Positions 715 to 9,499 of a stretch of DNA of 12,376 bases are shown here, piece after piece. This DNA comes from a virus (lineage: Duplodnaviria; Heunggongvirae; Uroviricota; Caudoviricetes). The stretch lies in the IMG/VR virus record IMGVR_UViG_2547132271_000006; one strand, 5' to 3'. The notes beneath the pieces are model-generated. The model did not search any database. It was not told the DNA's origin and was given only the letters and a program-made list of their open reading frames with translations. The position numbers were made by a program, and so were the translations under genes. The stretch's first letter is position 1. Every line of letters begins with the position of its first letter.

Positions 715-851
715 AGTAGTCTCCTGAGGTTTTATTAGAATCATTATGTTTGAGCGTAGCGTTGGTAACGCTACCAGGCGCGTGAATGTTACCCCATTTT
801 ATGTATGGGCATGTAGTAAAACTGCAAGTGAGGGTAGCAAGACAATGCTAT

Positions 852-885
852 GGATATAAAAAAACCAACCGTAAAGGTTGGTTTT
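852..885 (-). terminator. Intrinsic terminator downstream of proL (native chromosome), now separated from the tRNA by the inserted element
   Basis: Perfect 10-bp stem AAAACCAACC (861-870) / GGTTGGTTTT (876-885), loop GTAAA; on the minus strand it is followed by a T-rich tail. Confidence 0.6.
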
Positions 886-897
886 CTTGGGATTTTT

Positions 898-917
898 GGC
901 ACGAGAAGATATGAATT
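898..917. repeat. Degenerate direct repeat of the tRNA-Pro 3' end (distal att remnant of the integrative element)
   Basis: GGCACGAGAAGATATGAATT matches tRNA segment 9428-9447 GGCACGAGAGGATTTGAACC at 17/20 positions, same orientation, directly abutting the proL terminator. Confidence 0.55.
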
Positions 918-970
918 AATGATGTAATCTATTGAATTATAATTAATATTAGTTTCACTAGCCTTGTTTT

Positions 971-993
971 TAGTCCCAAACCTAGTCCCAAAA
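971..993. repeat. Two direct copies of TAGTCCCAAA near the distal element end (putative protein-binding / arm-type sites)
   Basis: TAGTCCCAAA at 971-980 and TAGTCCCAAAA at 983-993; the same motif occurs as a 4-copy dyad upstream of int (9246-9305). Confidence 0.45.
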
Positions 994-1093
994 TGAAAAG
1001 TCACAGCGTTTTTAGAGCAAGATAGAAATACCGATACGGGGATATTTAGAATGCCTCTTGGGCTTGCCACTGTCGGGCTTGCGATGGTTTCCA

Positions 1094-1136
1094 GTGGAAA
1101 CTTTTTGGTAAGTGGAAGCCTCGCTGGAAACTTTTT
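1094..1136. repeat. Direct repeat TGGAAACTTTTT x2, each embedded in a short palindrome (TTTCCAGTGGAAA, CTGGAAACTTTTTTCCAG)
   Basis: Read directly at 1094-1105 and 1125-1136. Confidence 0.4.
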
Positions 1137-1172
1137 TCCAGCCCCTCAAAGGCGCATGGTGACTGGTTTCAT

Positions 1173-1300
1173 ATGCTACGCAGTACTCATACTTTCCGTT
1201 TAGTTTTTGCGTACCTGCGCACCATGCTAAAGCCCCGTCATGGCCTTAGTTTGCCTGTTTGTAACCTTGACATTTCTATACATCGAAGTGCGCAAACACA
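1173..1300. repeat. Copy A of an ~130-bp imperfect direct repeat (non-coding)
   Basis: Aligns with 1556-1690 over its length (shared blocks ACGCAGTA, GTTTTGCGTACCTGCG, ACCATGC, AAAGCC, ATTTCTATA, GTGCGCAAA); indels break any common reading frame. Confidence 0.5.
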
Positions 1301-1360
1301 TCAGGATTTCCCCGGCTCACCTTCAGCAATGGCAAGGTTTTATGCGTGTTCCGGGCTTCG

Positions 1361-1407
1361 TCCGTCCATTTTTTTGGACGGAATTTTGGACGAATTTTTT
1401 GGACGGA
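1361..1407. repeat. CCGTCCA-T7-TGGACGG inverted repeat followed by two further direct TTTTGGACG copies
   Basis: Read directly: tccgtccatttttttggacggaattttggacgaattttttggacgg. Confidence 0.4.
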
Positions 1408-1555
1408 TGAAACGGGGCTAAGGCACTGATATAGCTACGTGATGGGCTAAAGAAATCTTCTGGCAGGTGCGCAAAAACCCTGGCATTTCTAAGCATCATA
1501 CTGCGCAAAAAACCACCAATCCGGTATGCCAGTACGCATCAGATAAGGCTTTGAG

Positions 1556-1690
1556 GCGGTACGCAGTATGCATTATGTTCGTTTCGTTTTGCGTACCTGC
1601 GTACCATGCGCAAAGCCGCTGATACCTGATATTCAGCCCTCTGAAACCTTAATATTTCTATATATCAACGTGCGCAAAAACCTTAACAAA
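1556..1690. repeat. Copy B of the ~130-bp imperfect direct repeat (contains tandem TGCGTACC TGCGTACC)
   Basis: See copy A; also carries GTGCGCAAAAACC, a motif recurring at 1289, 1469 and 1502. Confidence 0.5.
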
Positions 1691-1821
1691 ACTTAACATC
1701 CGGTGCGTACCTTTTTGCGCAGTCCGGCTGCTGGTGGATGACTGGTTTTGACTATCTCCAGAAACAACCAAGGCCGGATAAACCAGCCCTGACTACTGTA
1801 TAAAAACTGTATGCCCGTTGT

Positions 1822-1872
1822 TTGCATGGGGTAGTTTTAAAAAAACTTGCCATCTGATTGCATGGGGTAGTT
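1822..1872. repeat. Perfect 15-bp direct repeat TTGCATGGGGTAGTT x2
   Basis: Copies at 1822-1836 and 1858-1872, separated by an A-rich spacer. Confidence 0.45.
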
Positions 1873-1912
1873 CTCGCAAATACCCCCTTATGCCGTTTTC
1901 AGTGCGGGAGCG

Positions 1913-2083
1913 TCATACAGTCCAGGGTTCAGCCCGGGAAGAAGCGGCGCTTTTTGATGCCGCCCGACGGTCTGGCAGCGGGCGCGAACGCTGCTTTGCA
2001 CGAAATAGCTTTTCCGCACGCGCCATTGAACATCCCTTCTTTTCGCTGATTTTAGTGATTTCCATGTAATCGAAAAAACGCAT
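1913..2083 (-). CDS. Hypothetical small basic protein (56 aa, MRFFDYMEITKISEKKGCSMARAEKLFRAKQRSRPLPDRRAASKSAASSRAEPWTV); not in the supplied ORF track (<60 aa)
   Basis: ATG at 2083 preceded by AGGAAGG with a 6-nt spacer (strong RBS); in-frame TGA at 1913-1915; lies immediately downstream of the iteron array. Confidence 0.3.
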   Translation of the reverse strand: MRFFDYMEITKISEKKGCSMARAEKLFRAKQRSRPLPDRRAASKSAASSRAEPWTV

Positions 2084-2207
2084 TGTTTACCTTCCTGTTG
2101 TTCTGGTTGTTTGCCGGATGCCTGATTTTACCAGATACCCGCCAGGCGAGCTTTCCGGCTTTCAAACCTGAAATTCAGGAAAAATTATCTCTATATATAC
2201 AAAAGGG

Positions 2208-2496
2208 TGTTGTCCCTGTTGTCCCGGTTGGCCCAAAAGATGTAACGAACTGATTTTATTGAAATTGATTTTTAATTGTGGGACAACATGCCAGCATTGT
2301 GGGACAACATGCCCTGTTTCTGTGTTGTCCCACAATACTGGCTGGTGAATGTTGTCCCAAAACTCCCTGACGTTGTCCCAAAATTGCCGCATGTTGTCCC
2401 AGAAACACGCTGTGTTGTCCCATAATTACCTGATGATATCTCTAAATAACAGTATGTTACTCAGAAAATCTCTTCTCTGGGACAACCGGGACAACA
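2208..2496. repeat. Iteron array: 12 copies of 9-mer TGTTGTCCC / GGGACAACA (putative replication origin of the element)
   Basis: Direct copies at 2208, 2217, 2226 (degenerate), 2323, 2350, 2371 (CGTTGTCCC), 2392, 2413; inverted copies at 2280, 2301, 2479, 2488; exact 21-bp phasing at 2350/2371/2392/2413 and 2280/2301; located just 3' of the replication gene. Confidence 0.65.
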
Positions 2497-2517
2497 TCTT
2501 TTACGCGCACGTATGAA

Positions 2518-4659
2518 TTATCCGGCTTCTTCTTCCTCCTGTTCAGGTGCGAAAAGCAGGATATATGCACGTTGCCGGGCGTTATTCTGATGTTTCAGAC
2601 GCGGTGTTCTGCCCTGCCAGCCTCTGCCACTGGTGGGTTTCTTAAGCATCCCGGCATCATGCAGTACCTGCGCCACCGCGTCCTTGTTAAAGCCTCTGGC
2701 AACGTGTTCTTTAAACGGTGCCGGAAGCACGTAAAACAACATCGGGTCATCATACCGTTCGCCCTTGTCCCGGTAGCCCATCAGCTCACTAATGGGAAAA
2801 TCTCGCGGATCATAATCCACGGGTGCAAATTTGCTCATGCCCCAGGCGTTAAGAAATGCCACTGCCTGTTCTGCAATCTGCTGGTGTTCTTTGTTCCCGG
2901 TGCCAAACTCTTTCACCCAGGCATTAAAGCTGCGCTGTATCGCATCCCGGCACCCCTGCGCATCCCATCCGGTGATATGGCCTGACAGCACCAGCGCCGC
3001 TTCCATGATGGCGAATCGCTCCCCGACGCGGTGGACCTGCTCGCCGTAGTTGTCCGGGATAAGTCCGCGCCAGCGTTCCCTTGCGGCTTCTGTGGCCTCC
3101 CTCGCTGCCTGCTGGTGGTCTGCCAGCCAGAGCACCCACTCACGCCCTGCGGTGCCATGATGCGCCATACAGGCCGCTCTGAGCGCATCAGCATGAGCTT
3201 TACCGGACGGCATCCCGTGAAATTCCGTGGCCTTCTCCAGTGGCACATTAAGCAGGCGCACCAGTTGCCCCGCTTTGGGCTTCATGCCTGCGGCTGCAAG
3301 AAAGGTTTCTATGTCCATTTCTCCGGTACTGATGGCGACAGTTCGCCAGCGTTTAAGCTCCCGGTTACCGCCTTCCTTTGCGCCCTGTAGTTTCCCCACA
3401 CCGTTAAACAGCGTATAGGCAGACGTTGCCACGGCGCGGGCATCACTGCCCTGACCAACCTCATCCAGTGGCATCAGGCCGTCATTGTGCGCCTGTGCTT
3501 CGTTAGCAATACCCAGCGCAGTACCGTACCAGGTGAGGCGCAGTAAATCCGGGTTACCGTACAGACTGCTGGCGATGTTTGCCGTGGTGGTTTTCCCGGC
3601 GCTGGACTGCTGGAAGAAATGGACGCCGAAGCCATCCGCACCCACCAGCCCGACCAGTGGCGCGGCAAGTGCTGCCGCCACGCCCAGCATCATGGAAGGA
3701 TTACCCGCCACCAGCGCGGCGACGTTCTCCCGCCAGCTCTGCGCCGTTCCTGCACAGGTGTAACCGGAAGCCGTCGCGCTGTGACCGTAAAACAGGACCT
3801 TCCGGCCCGCCTCGCCGATGATTTCCCCGTCCGGCATGATGTATGCGCCGTGCTGCCATCCGGTCAGGCTGGTGATGTGCCAGAGTTCCCCTGTACCACT
3901 GCGCAACAGGTGATCGGCAAGGATGGCGCGAAAGTTATTTTTAGCCGTGACAGAAAGCCCACCAGCACGTAACCGCGACCAGCCTTCACGCTCGCCAGTA
4001 TCACGCATGGGTATCGCTTCGGTGTGTGCTGTACGCGCGCCTGCGGGCTTCCAGCGCAGAACAAGAAACCGCTCGGACTCATCCGCGCCAATGCCCACCA
4101 CCTCAAGCGGATCACACAACCACTGACCGGGGCGGGTAACTTCCCCGGTCTGCTTATCAATCTTTGGCGTTACCCAGTACAGACCGTCAGGGCGGGCCTC
4201 CACACAGGGGGCCAGCTCATCCACCGGCGCAGGTTTGCCCTCTGCCCGTAGTACCTCTTCCACCAGGCTTTCTTCCCCGCGTTCGTGCTGTTCGCGTATC
4301 CGGTTCAGGTAGTCGCGCCAGTCTTCCGGGTGCTGGTCAGGTATCCCCCTGTATAACTTCGCTTCCTGTACGCCCGCCAGCGCCAGCTTTTCAGCAATGG
4401 CATTAATCTGAATGGGCTTAATATCTCCGGCATGATAGAGGCGGGCGTACTTACACCCGTTATCGATAATGCGCAGGTTCGCCAGGTCTGCCAGTTGCTT
4501 TGGCCCCAGCCAGACAGGCGGCGTTTTATCTGCGGCAATTTTTAATCCCCAGTCCTCTTCCCATGTCTTAGCGTGAGCGAAGGCATCAGCCCCGGCAAAG
4601 ATAACCACCTCAACATGTTTATCTTTCGGTTGATGCTTAAGGTTCGGTGCGTTCTTCAT
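2518..4659 (-). CDS. Replication initiation protein, primase/helicase-like P-loop NTPase (P4 alpha-type / DUF927-like), 713 aa
   Basis: Track ORF; Walker A-like FQQSSAGKTTT, Walker B-like MPLDEVGQGS, acidic C-terminal tail; GAGG RBS 7 nt upstream of ATG; start overlaps upstream ORF stop (ATGA). Confidence 0.7.
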   Translation of the reverse strand: MKNAPNLKHQPKDKHVEVVIFAGADAFAHAKTWEEDWGLKIAADKTPPVWLGPKQLADLANLRIIDNGCKYARLYHAGDIKPIQINAIAEKLALAGVQEAKLYRGIPDQHPEDWRDYLNRIREQHERGEESLVEEVLRAEGKPAPVDELAPCVEARPDGLYWVTPKIDKQTGEVTRPGQWLCDPLEVVGIGADESERFLVLRWKPAGARTAHTEAIPMRDTGEREGWSRLRAGGLSVTAKNNFRAILADHLLRSGTGELWHITSLTGWQHGAYIMPDGEIIGEAGRKVLFYGHSATASGYTCAGTAQSWRENVAALVAGNPSMMLGVAAALAAPLVGLVGADGFGVHFFQQSSAGKTTTANIASSLYGNPDLLRLTWYGTALGIANEAQAHNDGLMPLDEVGQGSDARAVATSAYTLFNGVGKLQGAKEGGNRELKRWRTVAISTGEMDIETFLAAAGMKPKAGQLVRLLNVPLEKATEFHGMPSGKAHADALRAACMAHHGTAGREWVLWLADHQQAAREATEAARERWRGLIPDNYGEQVHRVGERFAIMEAALVLSGHITGWDAQGCRDAIQRSFNAWVKEFGTGNKEHQQIAEQAVAFLNAWGMSKFAPVDYDPRDFPISELMGYRDKGERYDDPMLFYVLPAPFKEHVARGFNKDAVAQVLHDAGMLKKPTSGRGWQGRTPRLKHQNNARQRAYILLFAPEQEEEEAG

Positions 4660-4898
4660 TCCACCGCCTCCCTGCGGGTGGCAGCCAGTGCCACGGCATC
4701 GCGGGTAAACTCCCGGTGAAAGCGATCCACCGGATATACGCAGGGGTGAGAGTAGCCATCACGGATATATGTCACGCGGTTGAACTGATTCCCGGTAATC
4801 ACTACCGCACACCCGGATTTGTCGCGCCATTTATCGCCAGGGCGAATTTCGGGTAAAGCCTGCCCGCTGGCAGGAATGCCAGTTATTTTCTTGGCCAT
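4656..4898 (-). CDS. Hypothetical protein, 80 aa, translationally coupled to the primase gene
   Basis: Track ORF; stop TGA overlaps primase ATG; only a weak RBS. Confidence 0.5.
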   Translation of the reverse strand: MAKKITGIPASGQALPEIRPGDKWRDKSGCAVVITGNQFNRVTYIRDGYSHPCVYPVDRFHREFTRDAVALAATRREAVE

Positions 4899-4910
4899 TA
4901 TTTTTTCGCC

Positions 4911-5108
4911 TTATGCTGCTGGTGGTGTAACGGTAAATCCGGCTATTTTTGCCGCTTCCAGAAAACCGTCCAGGTTACTGACAAACTCATTCTTCTGTAG
5001 CGTATAGCCGCCTGTGGCAGTGCCTTTTTCCACGCTAACCAGGACAAGCCCGGTGAAGTCCGGTCGCGCCGGAATGGTAACCGTGAAGGTCAGGGAGTGA
5101 TTACGCAT
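4911..5108 (-). CDS. Hypothetical protein, 65 aa (MRNHSLTFTVTIPARPDFTG...)
   Basis: Internal ATG of track ORF 4911..5222, chosen because it is preceded by GGAGG at 6-nt spacing and overlaps the upstream stop codon by 8 nt. Confidence 0.5.
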   Translation of the reverse strand: MRNHSLTFTVTIPARPDFTGLVLVSVEKGTATGGYTLQKNEFVSNLDGFLEAAKIAGFTVTPPAA

Positions 5109-5643
5109 GGTCTGCCTCCACATACGCGACACCCGCCACATCAAGCGCCTGTTTAAAACGGCAAAGCATTTCACGGCGTTCGCGGTACAGGGCCAGCACG
5201 AAGGGATCGAGTGTGGCTTCAATTTCGGCAGGATAACGACGGACGAAAGGCAGAAGGACGACGCCCTGACAGCGGTGTGGCGTGGTGGATTTCACCTGGT
5301 CAGCCAGCATATTCACCAGGTCATGTAACAGCCCGGTAAGCGGCTGGATCATGTCACGGGGCAATGTATCAGCCACCAGCGCCTTTGCCAGCGTGAGGCA
5401 GTATTCCAGCGTCAGGCTTTCATCAGGCCAGTACTCTGACAGATCGGATGCGGTATTGTCCGGCAGGGTAAGCACCGGATCCGCATGGTAGGCCGCTGTC
5501 AGTGCCTCCAGTGATGTGACAAGGTATTTGCACATCGCCCGGTGTTCCGTGCTGCTGCGGTATTCCATCAGCCCGCACACCAGCGCGGCGCACTCACCCG
5601 CCAGATGAAACAGCTCAACTCCTGCGGGGATCGGCTTATTCAT
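5101..5643 (-). CDS. Hypothetical protein, 180 aa (MNKPIPAGVELFHLAGECAALVCGLMEY...)
   Basis: C-terminal portion of track ORF 5101..6273; ATG at 5643 overlaps the stop of the upstream 65-aa gene; protein-like composition unlike the sequence upstream in that frame. Confidence 0.55.
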   Translation of the reverse strand: MNKPIPAGVELFHLAGECAALVCGLMEYRSSTEHRAMCKYLVTSLEALTAAYHADPVLTLPDNTASDLSEYWPDESLTLEYCLTLAKALVADTLPRDMIQPLTGLLHDLVNMLADQVKSTTPHRCQGVVLLPFVRRYPAEIEATLDPFVLALYRERREMLCRFKQALDVAGVAYVEADHA

Positions 5644-5833
5644 GATGCGCCCCCGTAGCGGGCAGGCGACCCGCAAAGAAGCAGACATTTTCCCGTGCAA
5701 GCTGGCGACGGGCTTCACGTTCGCTGGTGGCGGTAATGTGATGGATTGTTGCGGTAATGGTCGGGCAGTCGCGGCGAACGGCAGCGATAAGCCAGACGAA
5801 TTGCGGGCAGAACGGGGTGAGGGTAGTAGCCAT
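5636..5833 (-). CDS. Hypothetical small Cys/His-containing protein, 65 aa (MATTLTPFCPQFVWLIAAVRRDCPTITATIHHITATSEREARRQLARENVCFFAGRLPATGAHHE)
   Basis: Track ORF; strong RBS AAGGAGG 7 nt upstream of ATG; stop overlaps next gene's start. Confidence 0.6.
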   Translation of the reverse strand: MATTLTPFCPQFVWLIAAVRRDCPTITATIHHITATSEREARRQLARENVCFFAGRLPATGAHHE

Positions 5834-5843
5834 AAGGCAGCCT

Positions 5844-5930
5844 CCTTTGTGTTTAAGGAGTCACCGCCTGAGTTCTCACGCTCATAAGGGGCGGTGACGC
5901 TGGCGGGGGTGAGAAAACCGGACACAAAGG
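5844..5930 (-). promoter_or_regulatory. Structured mRNA leader: nested 9-bp inverted repeats able to sequester the RBS of the 65-aa gene
   Basis: Plus-strand CCTTTGTGT (5844-5852) vs ACACAAAGG (5922-5930); inner GTCACCGCC (5860-5868) vs GGCGGTGAC (5890-5898); the outer arm overlaps the AAGGAGG Shine-Dalgarno. Confidence 0.4.
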
Positions 5931-6004
5931 GAACCGGCCAGCCCGAAGGCTGCCCCACCAGCGCCACCATTGATACGGTCTGTTTTGCGGGTATGCGCTG
6001 GCAC

Positions 6005-6037
6005 GACACAAAAAAAGACGCTTTCGGCGTCTGTGTC
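6005..6037 (-). terminator. Intrinsic terminator inside the same-strand gene cluster, between the alpA-side genes and the replication operon
   Basis: Minus strand reads GACACAGACGCCGAAAGCGTCTTTTTTTGTGTC: 6-bp stem AGACGC/GCGTCT, loop CGAAA, T7 tail. Confidence 0.55.
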
Positions 6038-6039
6038 GC

Positions 6040-6273
6040 CTTTGTGTTAAACGGGTTCTCACGCCCGGCTGTGGATTTTGCCACAACGGGAATACTGTAA
6101 ATCCTGTTCAGGGAGGCAGGCAAGCGGTTTTTATTTTTTCCGGTGTCAGGTTTTGACAGGTTGTTGCCAGCCAGGATAACGAAAATATCGCGCTTGTCTG
6201 CGGTTAAAATACGCTTCTGGCTGGTGGCAGGGTGAGCGATGCCCTGACCGTGAAGGTCATTAATTGATTTCAT
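6040..6273 (-). CDS. ORF of unclear status (MKSINDLHGQGIAHPATSQKRILTADKRDIFVILAGNNLSKPDTG...): plausible coding start, 3' end cannot be called
   Basis: ATG at 6273 with AGGA upstream and E. coli-like codon choice in the first ~70 codons, but the frame stays open through the terminator hairpin and on to 5101; possibly a frameshifted pseudogene or an untranslated leader. Confidence 0.25.
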
Positions 6274-6287
6274 TATTTCAGTTCCTG

Positions 6288-6719
6288 TCAGGCAGCGTTC
6301 TGGTTATCCGGGTACATCATGAGGATGCTTTCGATGGTCTCCGGGGAAAGGCTCCCGTAGCCACCAGTACTGGCGCACTGATTGACCAGTTTAATGACCT
6401 TAAGCACATCCGCACGGCAGGCAAAGCGGTAGCGAAGATGCGCCCCTATGCCATCGGCATTGGCTTCTTCTGAACGCGCCAGGCAGATATCAAGGCGGCG
6501 CTCCAGTTCACTGGCGTAATTGCGGCCTGATGAAAGATGGCAGTGGCGCAGAATATCGTTTTCAGTCCAGCCACCAGCACCAGTGCAAAGCATATAAACG
6601 CGGGCGCGGTGCTTCTTCGGTGTGCGTCTCGCTTGTGTGCGGCTGGTGGTGGGGATAACATCAGACGGGCGAATATCTGTGTTAGCCGCCTGCTGTTCGG
6701 GGCGGTTTTCTTTTTTCAT
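6288..6719 (-). CDS. Hypothetical protein, 143 aa, basic low-complexity N-terminus; translationally coupled to alpA
   Basis: Track ORF; GAGG RBS; ATG overlaps the alpA stop (ATGA). Confidence 0.65.
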   Translation of the reverse strand: MKKENRPEQQAANTDIRPSDVIPTTSRTQARRTPKKHRARVYMLCTGAGGWTENDILRHCHLSSGRNYASELERRLDICLARSEEANADGIGAHLRYRFACRADVLKVIKLVNQCASTGGYGSLSPETIESILMMYPDNQNAA

Positions 6720-6928
6720 TGCGCCACCTCGCCGCGTGATTCAAATACACGATCATTTATCCATTTATTAACTTCGTCTTCAAACCAACCAACACGGCGT
6801 AGGCCAATGCGAAATCCTCGCGGAAATTCGCCAGCGTTAATCATCTCCTGAAATGCGCTATCTGATTTAATGCGTAAAATCATTTTTACTTCTTTTTTGA
6901 GAAGGATCTTTCTTTCTTCTGATGTCAT
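6716..6928 (-). CDS. alpA: AlpA-family small DNA-binding regulator (phage/island transcriptional regulator, excisionase-like), 70 aa
   Basis: Pattern LLKKEVKMILRIKSDSAFQEMINAGEFPRGFRIGLRRVGWFEDEVNKWI fits the AlpA/MerR-like HTH family; the track start at 6946 is a TTG codon, the first ATG is at 6928. Confidence 0.7.
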   Translation of the reverse strand: MTSEERKILLKKEVKMILRIKSDSAFQEMINAGEFPRGFRIGLRRVGWFEDEVNKWINDRVFESRGEVAQ

Positions 6929-6989
6929 TTGGTTAATCTCATTCAATACCGATTAATTCCGGCGGTGTAGGAATACTGGCATGATGAGA

Positions 6990-7055
6990 TAGGGTGAGGG
7001 CAACACTATTTAGGGTGAGGGTAGGTTACCGTGAGGGTCCGGGGTGGTTACCCTC
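6990..7055. repeat. AGGGTGAGGG direct repeats plus GAGGGT...ACCCTC inverted repeat in the intergenic region upstream of alpA (candidate operator)
   Basis: AGGGTGAGGG at 6991-7000 and 7012-7021, GTGAGGG at 7031-7037, inverted ACCCTC at 7050-7055, GGTTACC at 7024-7030 and 7046-7052. Confidence 0.4.
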
Positions 7056-7065
7056 TCGGTAGATG

Positions 7066-7794
7066 TTAAGCCACTTTTGATGGGGTGCGATCGATTGGGC
7101 AAGCGATTTTTTCGATAGCTTTGGCTGTGGATTCAACAAATCCGTAACTGGTTTTAAGCTCTGTAATTATGGCCTGCTGGTTAACTCTGGTGCCATTATT
7201 GTTAGGGTCATACTCTGCCCATTCACAATTCCTTATCCTGATAGCCTGATACAGAGGGTCTCTTTCTACGCCTCCGATAAACTTACCCAAGTGAAGAGGA
7301 TACGATTTTTTTAAAACCTCAATATCTCTTTCTAGTGCGGTAATTTTATTCTTAAGTTCGGATATCACTTGTGATTCTTGATTTGTACGTGATGGCGGCT
7401 GTAATCCCACTTCGTAGGGGGGGGTAATTATAATGGCATTATATTCTATGAACTCATTTTCAACCCAAGGCCAGATGTCCTTTGCCAGAAAGTTAGCATC
7501 AACTATATGTGTGTCGATATTAATATCGTCATTTTTAACTAAGCTTAAGGCATCAACTGGGAGATTCCATGAAGGGTCAGTATATGTGTAGGCTTTCAGT
7601 GGGATAACTTCTTTCAATTTAATAGCTTGACATATAATTTCTTTGAATGTTGAAGCTTTCTCATCGCTAATGTAGCCACTGACAATATTTGGATCAAGAG
7701 TATCGTACTCACCGGATAAGCCTGCCATAACTAAAGCTGCTTGTTCTAATGTCACAATTCTGAGTCGTTTAATATGGAAAGGTAAATCAATCAT
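7066..7794 (-). CDS. Hypothetical cargo protein, 242 aa, markedly AT-rich; no recognisable motif; central predicted coiled-coil segment
   Basis: Track ORF 7066..7797 (track start is GTG; ATG at 7794 has a GAGGTG RBS); GC content clearly below the flanking element genes; sits between int and alpA. Confidence 0.7.
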   Translation of the reverse strand: MIDLPFHIKRLRIVTLEQAALVMAGLSGEYDTLDPNIVSGYISDEKASTFKEIICQAIKLKEVIPLKAYTYTDPSWNLPVDALSLVKNDDINIDTHIVDANFLAKDIWPWVENEFIEYNAIIITPPYEVGLQPPSRTNQESQVISELKNKITALERDIEVLKKSYPLHLGKFIGGVERDPLYQAIRIRNCEWAEYDPNNNGTRVNQQAIITELKTSYGFVESTAKAIEKIACPIDRTPSKVA

Positions 7795-7974
7795 CACGCC
7801 ACCTCACGCCCTCTATCATGGAGGCCGCGCCAACCCGCAGAGGTGTACGGGAATTCGGGAGCTACCCTAGACGCGGCTTATTCTGTTACCGTCGGCTTTC
7901 TTCGGTTTTGCCCATGATAGATCGTTTTCTGAACGCTTGCATTGCAAGACTGTGTGAATAATCAGCTTGTGTTT

Positions 7975-9216
7975 TTATACAGCTCTAATTCCTCTCATTC
8001 CTGTTGCTAGTGTCACTCCCGTGGATGCGGTTTCCACAAATTCCCCCCACCAGCGCATCAACACAATACGCTTTTCAAGATAGTTACTCCGGTTATATGC
8101 CCTGCGAACTTCATTGGTGTCTACATGTGCCAGCGCCGCTTCTATCACATCAGGATCGAAGCCTTCTTCGTTGGCTGCGGTGCTGAATATGGCCCGTAAC
8201 CCGTGGGAAACAAGGACGCCTTGATACCCCATACGCCTTAACGCAGCATTGGCGCTTTGGCTGCTCATAGGTAATGTCGGTTTTTTAAAGCTGGGGAACA
8301 CATATTCACGATGGGCGCTAATAGGCTTCATTGCTTCCAGCACGGCTAATGCCTGCTCACATAAGGGAATGATGTGATCCCGGCGCATCTTCATGCGACC
8401 TGCTGGAATCGTCCAGGTTTTATCCGTCAGGTTGATTTCTTCCCATCGTGTTTCTGCTGCCTCTACAGGTCGCGTGACGGTTAAAAGCTGCCATTCAATG
8501 AGTAATCGCGTTTGCCGCTCTATGCTGGCAATGGATAGTGTCTGCATGAGGTCGGGTAACTGCTCCGGCCTGATGGTTGGCATATGTTTTTTAACTGGGG
8601 TAGGGAAGGCCTTTCTGACATTTGAGGCGGTATTGATCTCTATCAGTCCACTATTGGCGGCAAAATCCATCACTTCATTGATGCGCTGTAGAACGCGTTT
8701 TAGTGTTTCAAGATTGCCCCGCGCTTTAATCGGCTCCAGAACGGTGACGAACTTACGGGCCGTCAGTTCGTTAATGGGAGTATTTCCAATGTCAGGGAAT
8801 ACGTACTTTTCCAGCGAACGCCATATGTCTTTGATGGTATTGGCAGCAAGGTTCTGGCTTTTTTTCATCTCGTACCAGTCAGCGGCGACCTTTTTGAATG
8901 TGTTCCCCCGGCGCAGTTCCTCTGCTTCACGTTTTTGTTGCTGGTGGTGTTGTGGATCAATATCTCGGGCTAAAAGTGATTTAGCTTTCTCTCTACGTTC
9001 TCTGGCATCCGCTAAAGAAAGATCAGGATAATTACCAAGAGTCCATGTAGTACGCTTGCCAGTATCAGGCTTGTAGTAACGAAGCTGCCATGTCTTCACC
9101 CCCGAAGGTTTTACGATCAGAATTAATCCGCCACCATCGGTAAGGGTGGTTTCTTTATCGTGAGCTTTGGCATTTTTTATTTGAGTGGCGGTGAGTGGGG
9201 CGGTTTTGATGGCCAT
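7975..9216 (-). CDS. int: P4-type tyrosine integrase (site-specific recombinase), 413 aa
   Basis: N-terminal arm-binding-type domain (LTDGGGLILIVKPSGVKTWQLRY), C-terminal catalytic region with HGLRAIFST (H-x-x-R) and catalytic Tyr context (RRAYNRSNYLEKR); adjacent to tRNA 3' end. Confidence 0.9.
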   Translation of the reverse strand: MAIKTAPLTATQIKNAKAHDKETTLTDGGGLILIVKPSGVKTWQLRYYKPDTGKRTTWTLGNYPDLSLADARERREKAKSLLARDIDPQHHQQQKREAEELRRGNTFKKVAADWYEMKKSQNLAANTIKDIWRSLEKYVFPDIGNTPINELTARKFVTVLEPIKARGNLETLKRVLQRINEVMDFAANSGLIEINTASNVRKAFPTPVKKHMPTIRPEQLPDLMQTLSIASIERQTRLLIEWQLLTVTRPVEAAETRWEEINLTDKTWTIPAGRMKMRRDHIIPLCEQALAVLEAMKPISAHREYVFPSFKKPTLPMSSQSANAALRRMGYQGVLVSHGLRAIFSTAANEEGFDPDVIEAALAHVDTNEVRRAYNRSNYLEKRIVLMRWWGEFVETASTGVTLATGMRGIRAV

Positions 9217-9230
9217 AGGGCTAGCTCGCT

Positions 9231-9305
9231 TGGGACTTGGTAATGTTTTGGGACTAGGATTTTTAGGACTAGCCGCTATCTAGTCCCAAATTTAGTCCCA
9301 AAAAT
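9231..9305. repeat. Dyad of four TAGTCCCAAA-type sites upstream of int (two inverted, two direct); candidate operator / integrase arm sites
   Basis: TGGGACTA at 9249-9256, TAGGACTA at 9265-9272, TAGTCCCAAA at 9281-9290, TAGTCCCAAAAA at 9294-9305, plus GGGACT at 9232-9237. Confidence 0.5.
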
Positions 9306-9422
9306 TCCGGCTGTAAACGGTTAATACCGATATCTACAGGCATTAAAAAACCCGCAAACTCAGAGAGAATGCGGGTTCTTAAGGGGTTTCCGTATGTATC
9401 CGATACATCCAGAATAATGATT

Positions 9423-9499
9423 TGGTCGGCACGAGAGGATTTGAACCTCCGACCCCCGACACCCCATGACGGTGCGCTACCAGGCTGCGCTACGTGCCG
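9423..9499 (-). tRNA. proL: tRNA-Pro (anticodon GGG), integration target of the element
   Basis: Reverse complement reads CGGCACGTAGCGCAGCCTGGTAGCGCACCGTCATGGGGTGTCGGGGGTCGGAGGTTCAAATCCTCTCGTGCCGACCA, a 77-nt cloverleaf-compatible sequence with encoded CCA. Confidence 0.9.

Follow-up and report, generated by a model that had tools for sequence, protein, structure and literature searches.

How could a phage satellite spread if it encodes neither a capsid nor a terminase protein? This question is raised by an integrative element of ~8.5 kb located at the tRNA-Pro gene proL in IMG/VR virus record IMGVR_UViG_2547132271_000006, a stretch of 12,376 nucleotides of Caudoviricetes DNA that is referred to here as the window. 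A first-pass annotation had recognized no capsid-remodelling or packaging function in this element. This statement stands for genes: scans of all open reading frames (ORFs) against Pfam, PHROGs and NCBIfam revealed no capsid, psu/delta/sid or terminase gene. It probably does not stand for cis-acting sites. The late zone of the element carries three repeat arrays that match repeats located inside the small terminase (terS) genes of phages and satellites. On balance, we think it probable that the element is an intact and recently mobile satellite of the kind of the Gram-negative phage-inducible chromosomal islands (PICIs), reduced to integration, regulation and replication, whose late zone would consist of mimics of the packaging (pac) sites recognized by the TerS proteins of helper phages.

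Three repeat arrays in a late zone without genes

No conserved gene was found in the late zone (915-2200, ~1.3 kb). Its ten small ORFs yielded nothing meaningful in Pfam and PHROG scans, and tblastn searches with the ORFs of 24 related loci detected no coding homology in the zone past the repeats. A blastn search of positions 900-2520 returned no match in phages, and in E. coli genomes the iteron part alone was matched. Promoter and terminator scans of positions 800-2600 remained at chance level.

The three arrays lie at about 1085-1730 (Table 1). Array A has a 21-mer, AAAAAGTTTCCACTGGAAACC, in common with the terS gene of a Citrobacter relative (L009), and its copy number varies in two variants of the island (L034 and L438, described below). 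For array B, six of the seven copies of TGCGTAC in the window fall inside 1208-1710 (~500 bp), when 1.3 copies would be expected in the whole window. The diverged duplication of ~382 bp within this array relates 1177-1300 to 1560-1682 (a third copy, near 1473, is partial) and includes a stretch of 40 nt that is conserved, AACCTTGACATTTCTATACATCGAAGTGCGCAAA. Perfect matches of 19 to 21 nt link the arrays of the island to terS genes of phages or satellites. In the Citrobacter relative, an iteron-like segment located after terS (19842-20100) is ~70% identical to the window origin (2179-2332). This origin-like segment and the lack of a terL gene after terS suggest that the terS of L009 belongs to a satellite and not to a prophage.

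The two 25-nt repeats at 1812-1872 were considered as a ToxI-like element or as a fourth pac array. Both possibilities were rejected, with the 14-mer linked to TerS in none of 120 viral contigs, and no Rfam family matched these repeats.

Repeats inside phage terS genes and their covariation with the TerS HTH helix

Scanning IMG/VR for the 15-mer TTTTGCGTACCTGCG yielded 120 loci (L035-L154), most of which present 5-9 copies of TGCGTAC inside 250 bp. The 15-mer was found inside a TerS-homologous ORF in 92 of these 120 loci, at a median distance of 159 nt from the start codon. Klebsiella phage GZ7 has an annotated small terminase, located beside its large terminase, to which one of these B-type ORFs is 99% identical, and longer members of this TerS family present a Terminase_2 domain. 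The motif of array A was also found inside the terS of L342, L377 and L430, and the arrangement of array C recurs inside the terS of L159/L179/L180 and L192; within these genes, the A- and C-type arrays lie 138-186 nt from the start.

In every case examined, the terS-internal repeats begin ~130-290 nt into the gene, directly after the N-terminal helix-turn-helix (HTH), and the putative recognition helix of this HTH differs with the repeat motif. Indeed, the motif GGTACGCA is found with the helix GV(T/S)EGAIRKRAKK (many IMG/VR phages and Klebsiella phage GZ7), the motif GTTTCCAC with G(V/I)SHTAINNK (independent genes of L009, L342 and L430), and the motif CGTCCAAAA with (I/V)AKSTLxDMAxK (L159/L179 and L192). 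The Shiga toxin (Stx) phage Min27 (L195) presents four copies of GATCATGAA at the equivalent terS position. We also observed that the N-terminal HTH module of this TerS family is paired with two different types of C-terminal domain. In phage P1 (L435), the annotated pac cleavage sites are located 275-285 nt into pacA and are flanked by TGATCA hexamers, which begin right after the N-terminal HTH. Based on their position, their covariation with the HTH and the analogy with P1, we infer that the terS-internal repeats are likely pac recognition sites.

In the window, no HTH or C-terminal coding remnant of terS was detectable for any of the arrays, and repeat segments only are present. The same ORF-free pair of arrays A and B was found, in the same order and beside an iteron cluster, in the Serratia satellites L014, L016 and L088 and in L095. 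The L014 copy extends over the entire segment from repeat to repeat of the phage gene and goes no further. Of 5426 complete E. coli genomes, 240 have prophages with a B-type terS gene, which adjoins a terL of the PBSX family, and plausible helpers therefore exist in the genus. We tentatively propose, at somewhat less than an even chance, that the whole packaging apparatus of the island is a non-coding adaptor made of three side-by-side pac mimics, such that several unrelated pac-type helpers could package it as concatemers, and that this working satellite would encode no capsid, terminase or redirecting protein. For the phages, a corollary would be that pac in this widespread TerS family is situated within terS, directly behind the N-terminal HTH, with a repeat motif that could be deduced from the HTH helix.

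Integration at proL

The element is flanked by narP (67-744) on the left and by yejM-yejL-yejK (from 9574) on the right. These flanks present ~91-95% identity to all complete E. coli genomes, which indicates that the host is an Escherichia outside typical E. coli; public records give the exactly matching proteins the label 'unclassified Escherichia' or 'Escherichia'. In E. coli, a ~2.6-kb autotransporter gene, yejO, is located between narP and the proL terminator. It is absent here (window 745-860 relative to L002 912-3890), a gap that is external to the island and left of the terminator.

The first-pass annotation had described a satellite-type island inserted between an intact tRNA-Pro with an adjoining integrase gene and a decayed copy of the tRNA 3' end 8.5 kb away, next to the native proL terminator. 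It had listed int, an AT-rich cargo gene, alpA, coupled small ORFs, a replication gene and an iteron origin on a single strand. All of these components were recovered, and all island genes are on the minus strand (Table 1). A 9-bp core, GGCACGAGA, occurs exactly at 898-906 and at 9428-9436, the latter within tRNA-Pro, which confirms the span of ~8.5 kb. In the island-free E. coli WG5 the junction reads terminator-cttgggattttt-GGTCGGCACGAGAGGATTTGAACC, and in the window it reads terminator-cttgggatttttGG----CACGAGAaGATaTGAAtt; this comparison shows that the left island junction adjoins the native proL terminator. Past the crossover, the 3' bases of proL derive from the island.

The displaced copy of the tRNA end is real, but its description as decayed does not hold. 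Four bases (TCGG) are deleted at the far attachment (att) site relative to the E. coli attB. The identical loss was found in the proL island of E. coli JCC-EE 7 (L027), whose integrase gene is only ~75% identical to that of the window at the DNA level, and in the variants L034 and L438. This recurrence indicates a site-specific deletion rather than random decay. Deletions in tRNA fragments that start at a fixed position of the acceptor stem have been described for tRNA-Pro, tRNA-Thr, tRNA-Sec and others, in PICIs only, and such a deletion in the displaced fragment has been proposed to damage the tRNA gene on excision (PMC10111431). As read from the junctions, excision would here leave proL ending in ...CGTGCC instead of ...CGTGCCGACCA.

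Repeats of the TAGTCCCAAA type are present on both arms of the island. In the proL island of E. coli, both corresponding positions are occupied by another repeat, CGTATAACTAAA, and the repeats of the window are therefore interpreted as putative arm-type sites of the integrase. These repeats and the Rep iterons TGTTGTCCCAAAA have a GTCCCAA core in common, which might reflect either coincidence or common recognition. Finally, a PADLOC search with the AT-rich cargo gene and the proteins of unknown function returned no match to a defence system.

An RNA immunity module that co-varies with its targets

The first-pass annotation overlooked an isrK/C4 RNA immunity module and its icd gene. The loops of the C4 RNA, CCTTTGTGT at 5922-5930 and TTCTCAC at 5909-5915, are complementary to two pairs of boxes (ACACAAAGG and GTGAGAA), one in the leader (6039-6062, with boxes at 6039-6047 and 6056-6062) and the other at the icd site (5844-5879). 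The Rfam model of c4-a1b1 targets (RF03163) scored 46.4 bits, slightly below its gathering score. In L034, the C4 loops are CCATTGAG and TTTCCAC and both target sets are CTCAATGG and GTGGAAA, and two more matched sets of loops and targets were found in L005 and L027. Between the window and L034, the C4 RNA is 88.6% identical and icd is 100% identical. The covariation of the C4 loops with both target sets across the window, L034, L005 and L027 indicates that the immunity module is under selection. Such three-way compensation shows a functional module, with immunity specificities that differ between close relatives.

We considered whether 5101-6273 might represent a single gene of 390 amino acids, but this was rejected since its match to Phage_ASH (residues 59-149) falls on the isrK/C4 RNA region. 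The Phage_ASH match (5827-6099, minus strand) and the pseudogenes called 'ash family protein' by RefSeq in E. coli relatives coincide with the isrK/C4 RNAs, and the Phage_ASH family, at least here, appears to be a translated RNA gene. The 180-aa protein encoded after icd has only eight homologue clusters, and its AlphaFold2 (AF2) model is helical with a pLDDT of 67, which was judged too weak for use as a structure-search query. No ORF matched an annotated family for epsilon (no epsilon-specific profile was run), and the 180-aa protein has no detectable relatives of known function.

Replication protein and origin

The closest relative of the replication protein (Rep) with a solved structure is PDB 8tch, 'Pathogenicity island protein' (E 1.9e-14), and Rep resembles the Rep helicase of the Staphylococcus aureus pathogenicity islands (SaPIs) rather than P4 alpha. 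When searched by tblastn against 50,697 phage records, Rep yielded 15 matches and none to P4, although the presence of a P4 record in this collection was not confirmed. The small phage-database records that matched Rep (ECO95 1-6-1 and P12620-1) were uninformative. The iteron origin is kept in L003 and L034, and a similar segment is found in the E. coli proL islands.

Table 1. Features of the proL element and its boundaries in the 12,376-nt window.
Feature	Position	Strand	Evidence and remarks
Native proL terminator	858-885	minus	Hairpin and T-run as directly 3' of proL in island-free E. coli WG5; chromosomal, left boundary, not island
Far-end att site	898-915		Core 898-906, then island arm still tRNA-like; imperfect similarity to 915, 16/18 bases
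Two direct TAGTCCCAAA repeats, putative integrase arm-type sites, far arm	971-993	plus	Repeat search
Array A, GTTTCCA(C)/TGGAAAC repeats	1087-1141		81.8% blastn match to repeat segment in L009 terS
Array B, TTTTGCGTACC(TGCGTACC) and inverted variant GTGCGCAAAAAC	1177-1726		Diverged duplication, ~382 bp
Array C, CGTCCAAAA x3 then inverted TGGACGGACG	1355-1410	minus	3 copies vs 0.17 expected
Two 25-nt repeats (TGCC..TTGCATGGGGTAGTT), 36 nt apart	1812-1872	plus	Single copy in L003
56-aa ORF	1913-2083	minus	Good ribosome-binding site; not a conserved gene (early stop in L034, start deleted in L003); no Pfam/PHROG match
Iteron origin	2208-2496	both orientations	11x TGTTGTCCCA vs 0.76 expected, around AT-rich centre
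Replication initiator/helicase (DUF927), 713 aa	2518-4659	minus	PF06048 E 2.6e-48; phrog_1139 'DNA primase' E 2.7e-135
DUF4222 protein, 80 aa	4656-4898	minus	PF13973 E 2.8e-22; stop overlaps Rep start
65-aa protein	4911-5108	minus	phrog_340; called as gene in public assemblies
180-aa protein	5101-5643	minus	Overlaps icd end; same position as ant of P1 and epsilon of P4; no family
Icd-like protein, 65 aa	5636-5833	minus	NF033153, 71.1 bits vs cut-off 25
Downstream C4 targets	5844-5879	minus	ACACAAAGG at 5844-5852 overlaps icd ribosome-binding site; GTGAGAA at 5873-5879
C4-family antisense RNA, counterpart of P4 CI and P1 C4	5887-5974	minus	RF01695, 82.2 bits vs gathering score 45
isrK-like leader RNA	6010-6100	minus	RF01394, 68.2 bits, match at 6011-6087; terminator 6010-6031
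Putative constitutive leader promoter, TTGCCT-17-TACAGT	6094-6123	minus	Sequence reading only; similar in L003, TTGCCT-17-TATGCT
143-aa ORF	6288-6719	minus	Coupled, 4-bp overlap with alpA; no family; kept beside alpA in L013, L017, L023
AlpA-type excisionase/activator	6716-6946	minus	70 aa from ATG at 6928; PF05930 E 1.8e-8; PHROG 'excisionase and transcriptional regulator'
AT-rich accessory ORF, 242-243 aa	7066-7797	minus	GC 0.38-0.44; no family match (Pfam, NCBIfam, PHROGs)
int-alpA RNA motif	7810-7877	minus	RF02996, 43.1 bits vs 35.8; present too in L003, L013, L023
Tyrosine integrase, 413 aa	7975-9216	minus	Arm-DNA-bind_3, Phage_int_M, Phage_integrase; NF007246, 557 bits
Four to five (T)AGTCCCAA repeats, putative integrase arm-type sites, int-proximal arm	9230-9303	both orientations	
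tRNA-Pro(GGG) proL, intact	9423-9499	minus	ARAGORN, sole tRNA found; att core 9428-9436

Relatives, variants and signs of mobility

We compared 23 loci with a related Rep (52-74% identity). Many of these relatives present phage capsid, prohead protease, portal, Clp protease or terS genes after Rep, and the window presents none of them. Relatives in E. coli, E. albertii and Serratia oryzae encode SSB, ProQ/FinO and PerC at this place, which are absent from the window too. The proL islands of E. coli and E. albertii (L027 5600-6908 and 8305-8522; L005 13650-14950) show a second iteron-like cluster, GTCCCAC/GGGACAAG, near their far end. Three copies of AAATGATCC are also present in the L027 and L005 islands, and their GATCAT core is reminiscent of the terS repeats of Stx phages.

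At least 24 public contigs contain the identical island at this site, and variants with 94-97% identity were identified in a metagenome scaffold (L034, 96.7%), in Escherichia sp. MOD1-EC7003 (L003) and in GCA_053006925.1 (L438). In L003 and L438 the regulatory zone has been swapped and the remainder is 94-97% identical to the window; the zone of L438 encodes AntA and a TumE-type toxin-antitoxin pair. More generally, the swapped zones (L003 2190-4092, L438 5902-8008 and L439 10616-12512) contain an AntA or Bro-N gene and a C4 RNA that differs from that of the window, together with a TumE/HVO_A0114 toxin-antitoxin pair in the opposite orientation. None of the island genes of L034 has acquired a new stop, and its int differs from that of the window by 19 synonymous and 4 non-synonymous codons. 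The spread of the element looks recent since a single Rep cluster at 90% identity carries the labels E. fergusonii, E. ruysiae, Shigella flexneri, E. coli and cryptic Escherichia. These patterns lead us to favour an element that is functional and was recently transferred.

The proL locus of Salmonella enterica (L439/L440, 9001-18700) retains a homologue of the cargo gene, alpA, Bro-N, the toxin-antitoxin pair and icd. Past these genes, the locus continues with an effector gene of the NEL-domain type and remnants of tail fibres; in the gap that follows yejM, gene calling yielded no integrase. This locus looks like an eroded relative of the island.

Proposed mechanism and alternative explanations

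What was seen directly is the anatomy of the island, the covariation of its RNAs, the match between its arrays and those inside terS genes, and a TerS HTH helix that changes along with the array motif. These observations suggest a scenario for the life cycle of the element in which induction, the role of the arrays as pac sites, the packaging of concatemers and the identity of the helpers are conjectural. In the integrated state, a constitutive transcript would give rise to the isrK-like leader and to the C4 antisense RNA, which would pair with the upstream boxes and with the boxes at the icd ribosome-binding site and thereby keep the operon of icd, the 180-aa protein, the 65-aa protein, DUF4222 and Rep silent. 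Upon helper-phage activity, AlpA and Int would excise the island at GGCACGAGA, leaving proL with a truncated acceptor end, and Rep would fire the iteron origin. The island would contribute no capsid or terminase protein of its own; its distal zone would instead hold three arrays copied from pac-type regions inside helper terS genes. Helper TerS proteins of up to three specificity groups might then begin headful packaging of island concatemers, filling full-size capsids. No capsid-remodelling gene would be needed, because the helper TerS and TerL would package concatemers by the headful into capsids of full size.

Several observations weigh against the pac-mimic interpretation. TGGAAAC alone is not significant window-wide (5 copies when 1.7 are expected, a number reached in 10 of 200 shuffles). 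Array B is sparser than the phage terS arrays, with 6 copies over 500 bp, and L034 and L438 are without 92 bp of it (1498-1588). The far 650 bp of the island are 84-89% identical to L034 relative to 96-98% for the genes, which weak constraint would also fit. Moreover, the link with P1 is architectural only: we did not retain PacA as a homologue of this TerS family given its weak similarity by BLASTP (E 0.008 over 45 aa) and hhalign (probability 11%). Finally, our literature search found no paper mapping pac for this TerS family.

Some of these patterns would be expected if the element were a defective remnant of a larger PICI that has lost its late genes, terS included, so that the arrays are functionless relics of terS and the island is inherited vertically or moved by rare generalized transduction. 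The far end diverges fastest, array copy number varies among variants, the 56-aa ORF (1913-2083) is decaying, L009 keeps a full terS with array A after its late region, and the Salmonella relatives at proL are clearly eroded. However, neutral decay should not spare repeats, and here the repeat segments alone survive with no coding remnant of terS. The exact 19- to 21-mers common to the arrays and to phage or satellite terS, and the ORF-free A and B pair kept in distant satellites whose Rep is ~60% identical, speak against simple erosion, as do the intact state of all genes, an immunity RNA that co-varies with its targets and the near-identical islands in several species. We consider that such a remnant is unlikely, but it is the alternative that deserves the most attention.

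Alternatively, the island might not be a satellite at all but an integrating plasmid or a mobilizable island spread by conjugation, with repeats that serve in replication control, in partition or as a transfer origin. Its iteron replicon is plasmid-like, the arm-type repeats resemble the iteron core, and conjugative plasmids also commonly encode SSB and ProQ/FinO-family proteins, which are present in the proL relatives from E. coli and E. albertii. Yet no relaxase, coupling protein or partition gene was detected with Pfam, NCBIfam or PHROGs, and the arrays match terS-internal repeats and not known oriT or par sites. The combination of int and alpA, C4/isrK/icd and a SaPI-type Rep is a PICI signature (PMC10111431), and relatives of Rep adjoin capsid and portal genes, all of which makes the conjugative scenario improbable. 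A classical P4-family satellite with P2-like helpers, diverged beyond recognition, would account for the tRNA-targeting P4-type integrase with its arm-binding domain, for alpA and for the CI/C4-type immunity RNA. This possibility appears very improbable to us: there are no psu, delta or sid genes nor ORFs at their expected place, no P2/P4 cos within 3 mismatches, and Rep matches a SaPI-type helicase and yielded no P4 match among the phage records searched.

If the pac-mimic interpretation is correct and a gene-free array suffices for transfer, many of the elements that consist of int, alpA and primase only (>6,000; PMC10085698) could be functional satellites, and both satellite counts and host-range estimates would need revision. 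Side-by-side mimics of several terminase specificities would represent a cheap route to a wider range of helpers. Provided that it is true, the correspondence of the terS-internal repeats with the HTH helix of TerS would allow pac sites and helper-satellite pairs to be predicted from sequence in enterobacterial temperate phages.

Comparison with known satellites and immunity systems

Among the P4-like core components of SatelliteFinder (int, psu, delta, sid, alpA, epsilon and alpha), the integrase and AlpA are present here. Rep does not appear to be a homologue of alpha: it matched no P4 record in a phage collection for which a P4 entry is unconfirmed, and its best PDB relative is a pathogenicity-island protein. 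The P2/P4 cos sequence GGCGAGGCGGGGAAAGCAC has no match in the window with up to 3 mismatches, and a search for lambda cosN remained at chance level. The P4-like membership suggested by the first-pass annotation is therefore not supported. Its other suggestion, a minimal satellite class, was a reasonable one: under the rules of SatelliteFinder, the element would be a Type C PICI with 3/5 core components. This class comprises >6,000 elements, which were set aside by the authors as possibly defective (PMC10085698).

The element fits the Gram-negative PICI kind. These islands present a layout in four zones that includes C4/isrK RNAs, with DUF927 counted as 'Primase' (Mageeney et al. 2023, PMC10111431). 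As in the EcCICFT073 type, int and alpA are co-oriented at one end and point inward, a regulatory (Bro) zone contains C4 and isrK (with AntA/Bro-N at this place in the variants L438 and L439), the DUF927 Primase lies beside the origin, the size is ~10 kb, and integration into a tRNA gene comes with a deletion in the displaced tRNA-Pro fragment. In contrast to these islands, the late zone here is without any gene (capsid, protease, Rpp or TerS) and repeat arrays replace cos. The deletion in the tRNA-Pro fragment has already been published (PMC10111431), and what is new here is the gene-free zone with terS-type arrays.

The PICMIs, described as minimalist satellites, are a close counterpart in gene content: their core is int, alpA and primase, and like our element they have few further genes of unknown function, large non-coding stretches and no capsid-remodelling genes (PMC10803314). 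Their DNA has been shown to enter capsids of full size in the form of concatemers, a packaging mode that we propose here by inference. They differ by their Vibrionaceae hosts, their site next to fis and their virulent helpers, as opposed to Escherichia and proL here; no RNA immunity module has been reported for PICMIs, and the study that described them identified no packaging signal (PMC10803314).

The regulatory zone can be compared to the immI region of P1/P7 (c4-icd-ant) and to CI of P4. In all of these, the leader of the controlled operon gives rise, by processing, to a C4-family RNA, the two-box targets are located upstream and at the icd ribosome-binding site, and icd comes first. The controlled operon of P4 ends in a replication gene, as it does here. 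In P1/P7, icd is followed by Ant, whereas the 180-aa protein is found at this place in our element and an AntA gene is present in the variant L438 only. The pacA gene of P1 resembles the terS genes with arrays in that an N-terminal HTH is followed by short in-gene repeats at a similar distance from the start, but the repeat sequences differ and the protein similarity is weak.

Packaging-signal mimicry itself has been shown for P4 cos, SaPIbov5, EfCIV583 and PLE pac, which carry a copy of the recognition site of the helper terminase and rely on the TerS and TerL of the helper (PMC11417361). We propose that the proL element proceeds likewise. The described examples have one helper-type signal each; SaPIbov5 has both a pac and a cos site. 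In the island described here, the mimic would be the sole packaging device and would cover three specificity groups of helper TerS.

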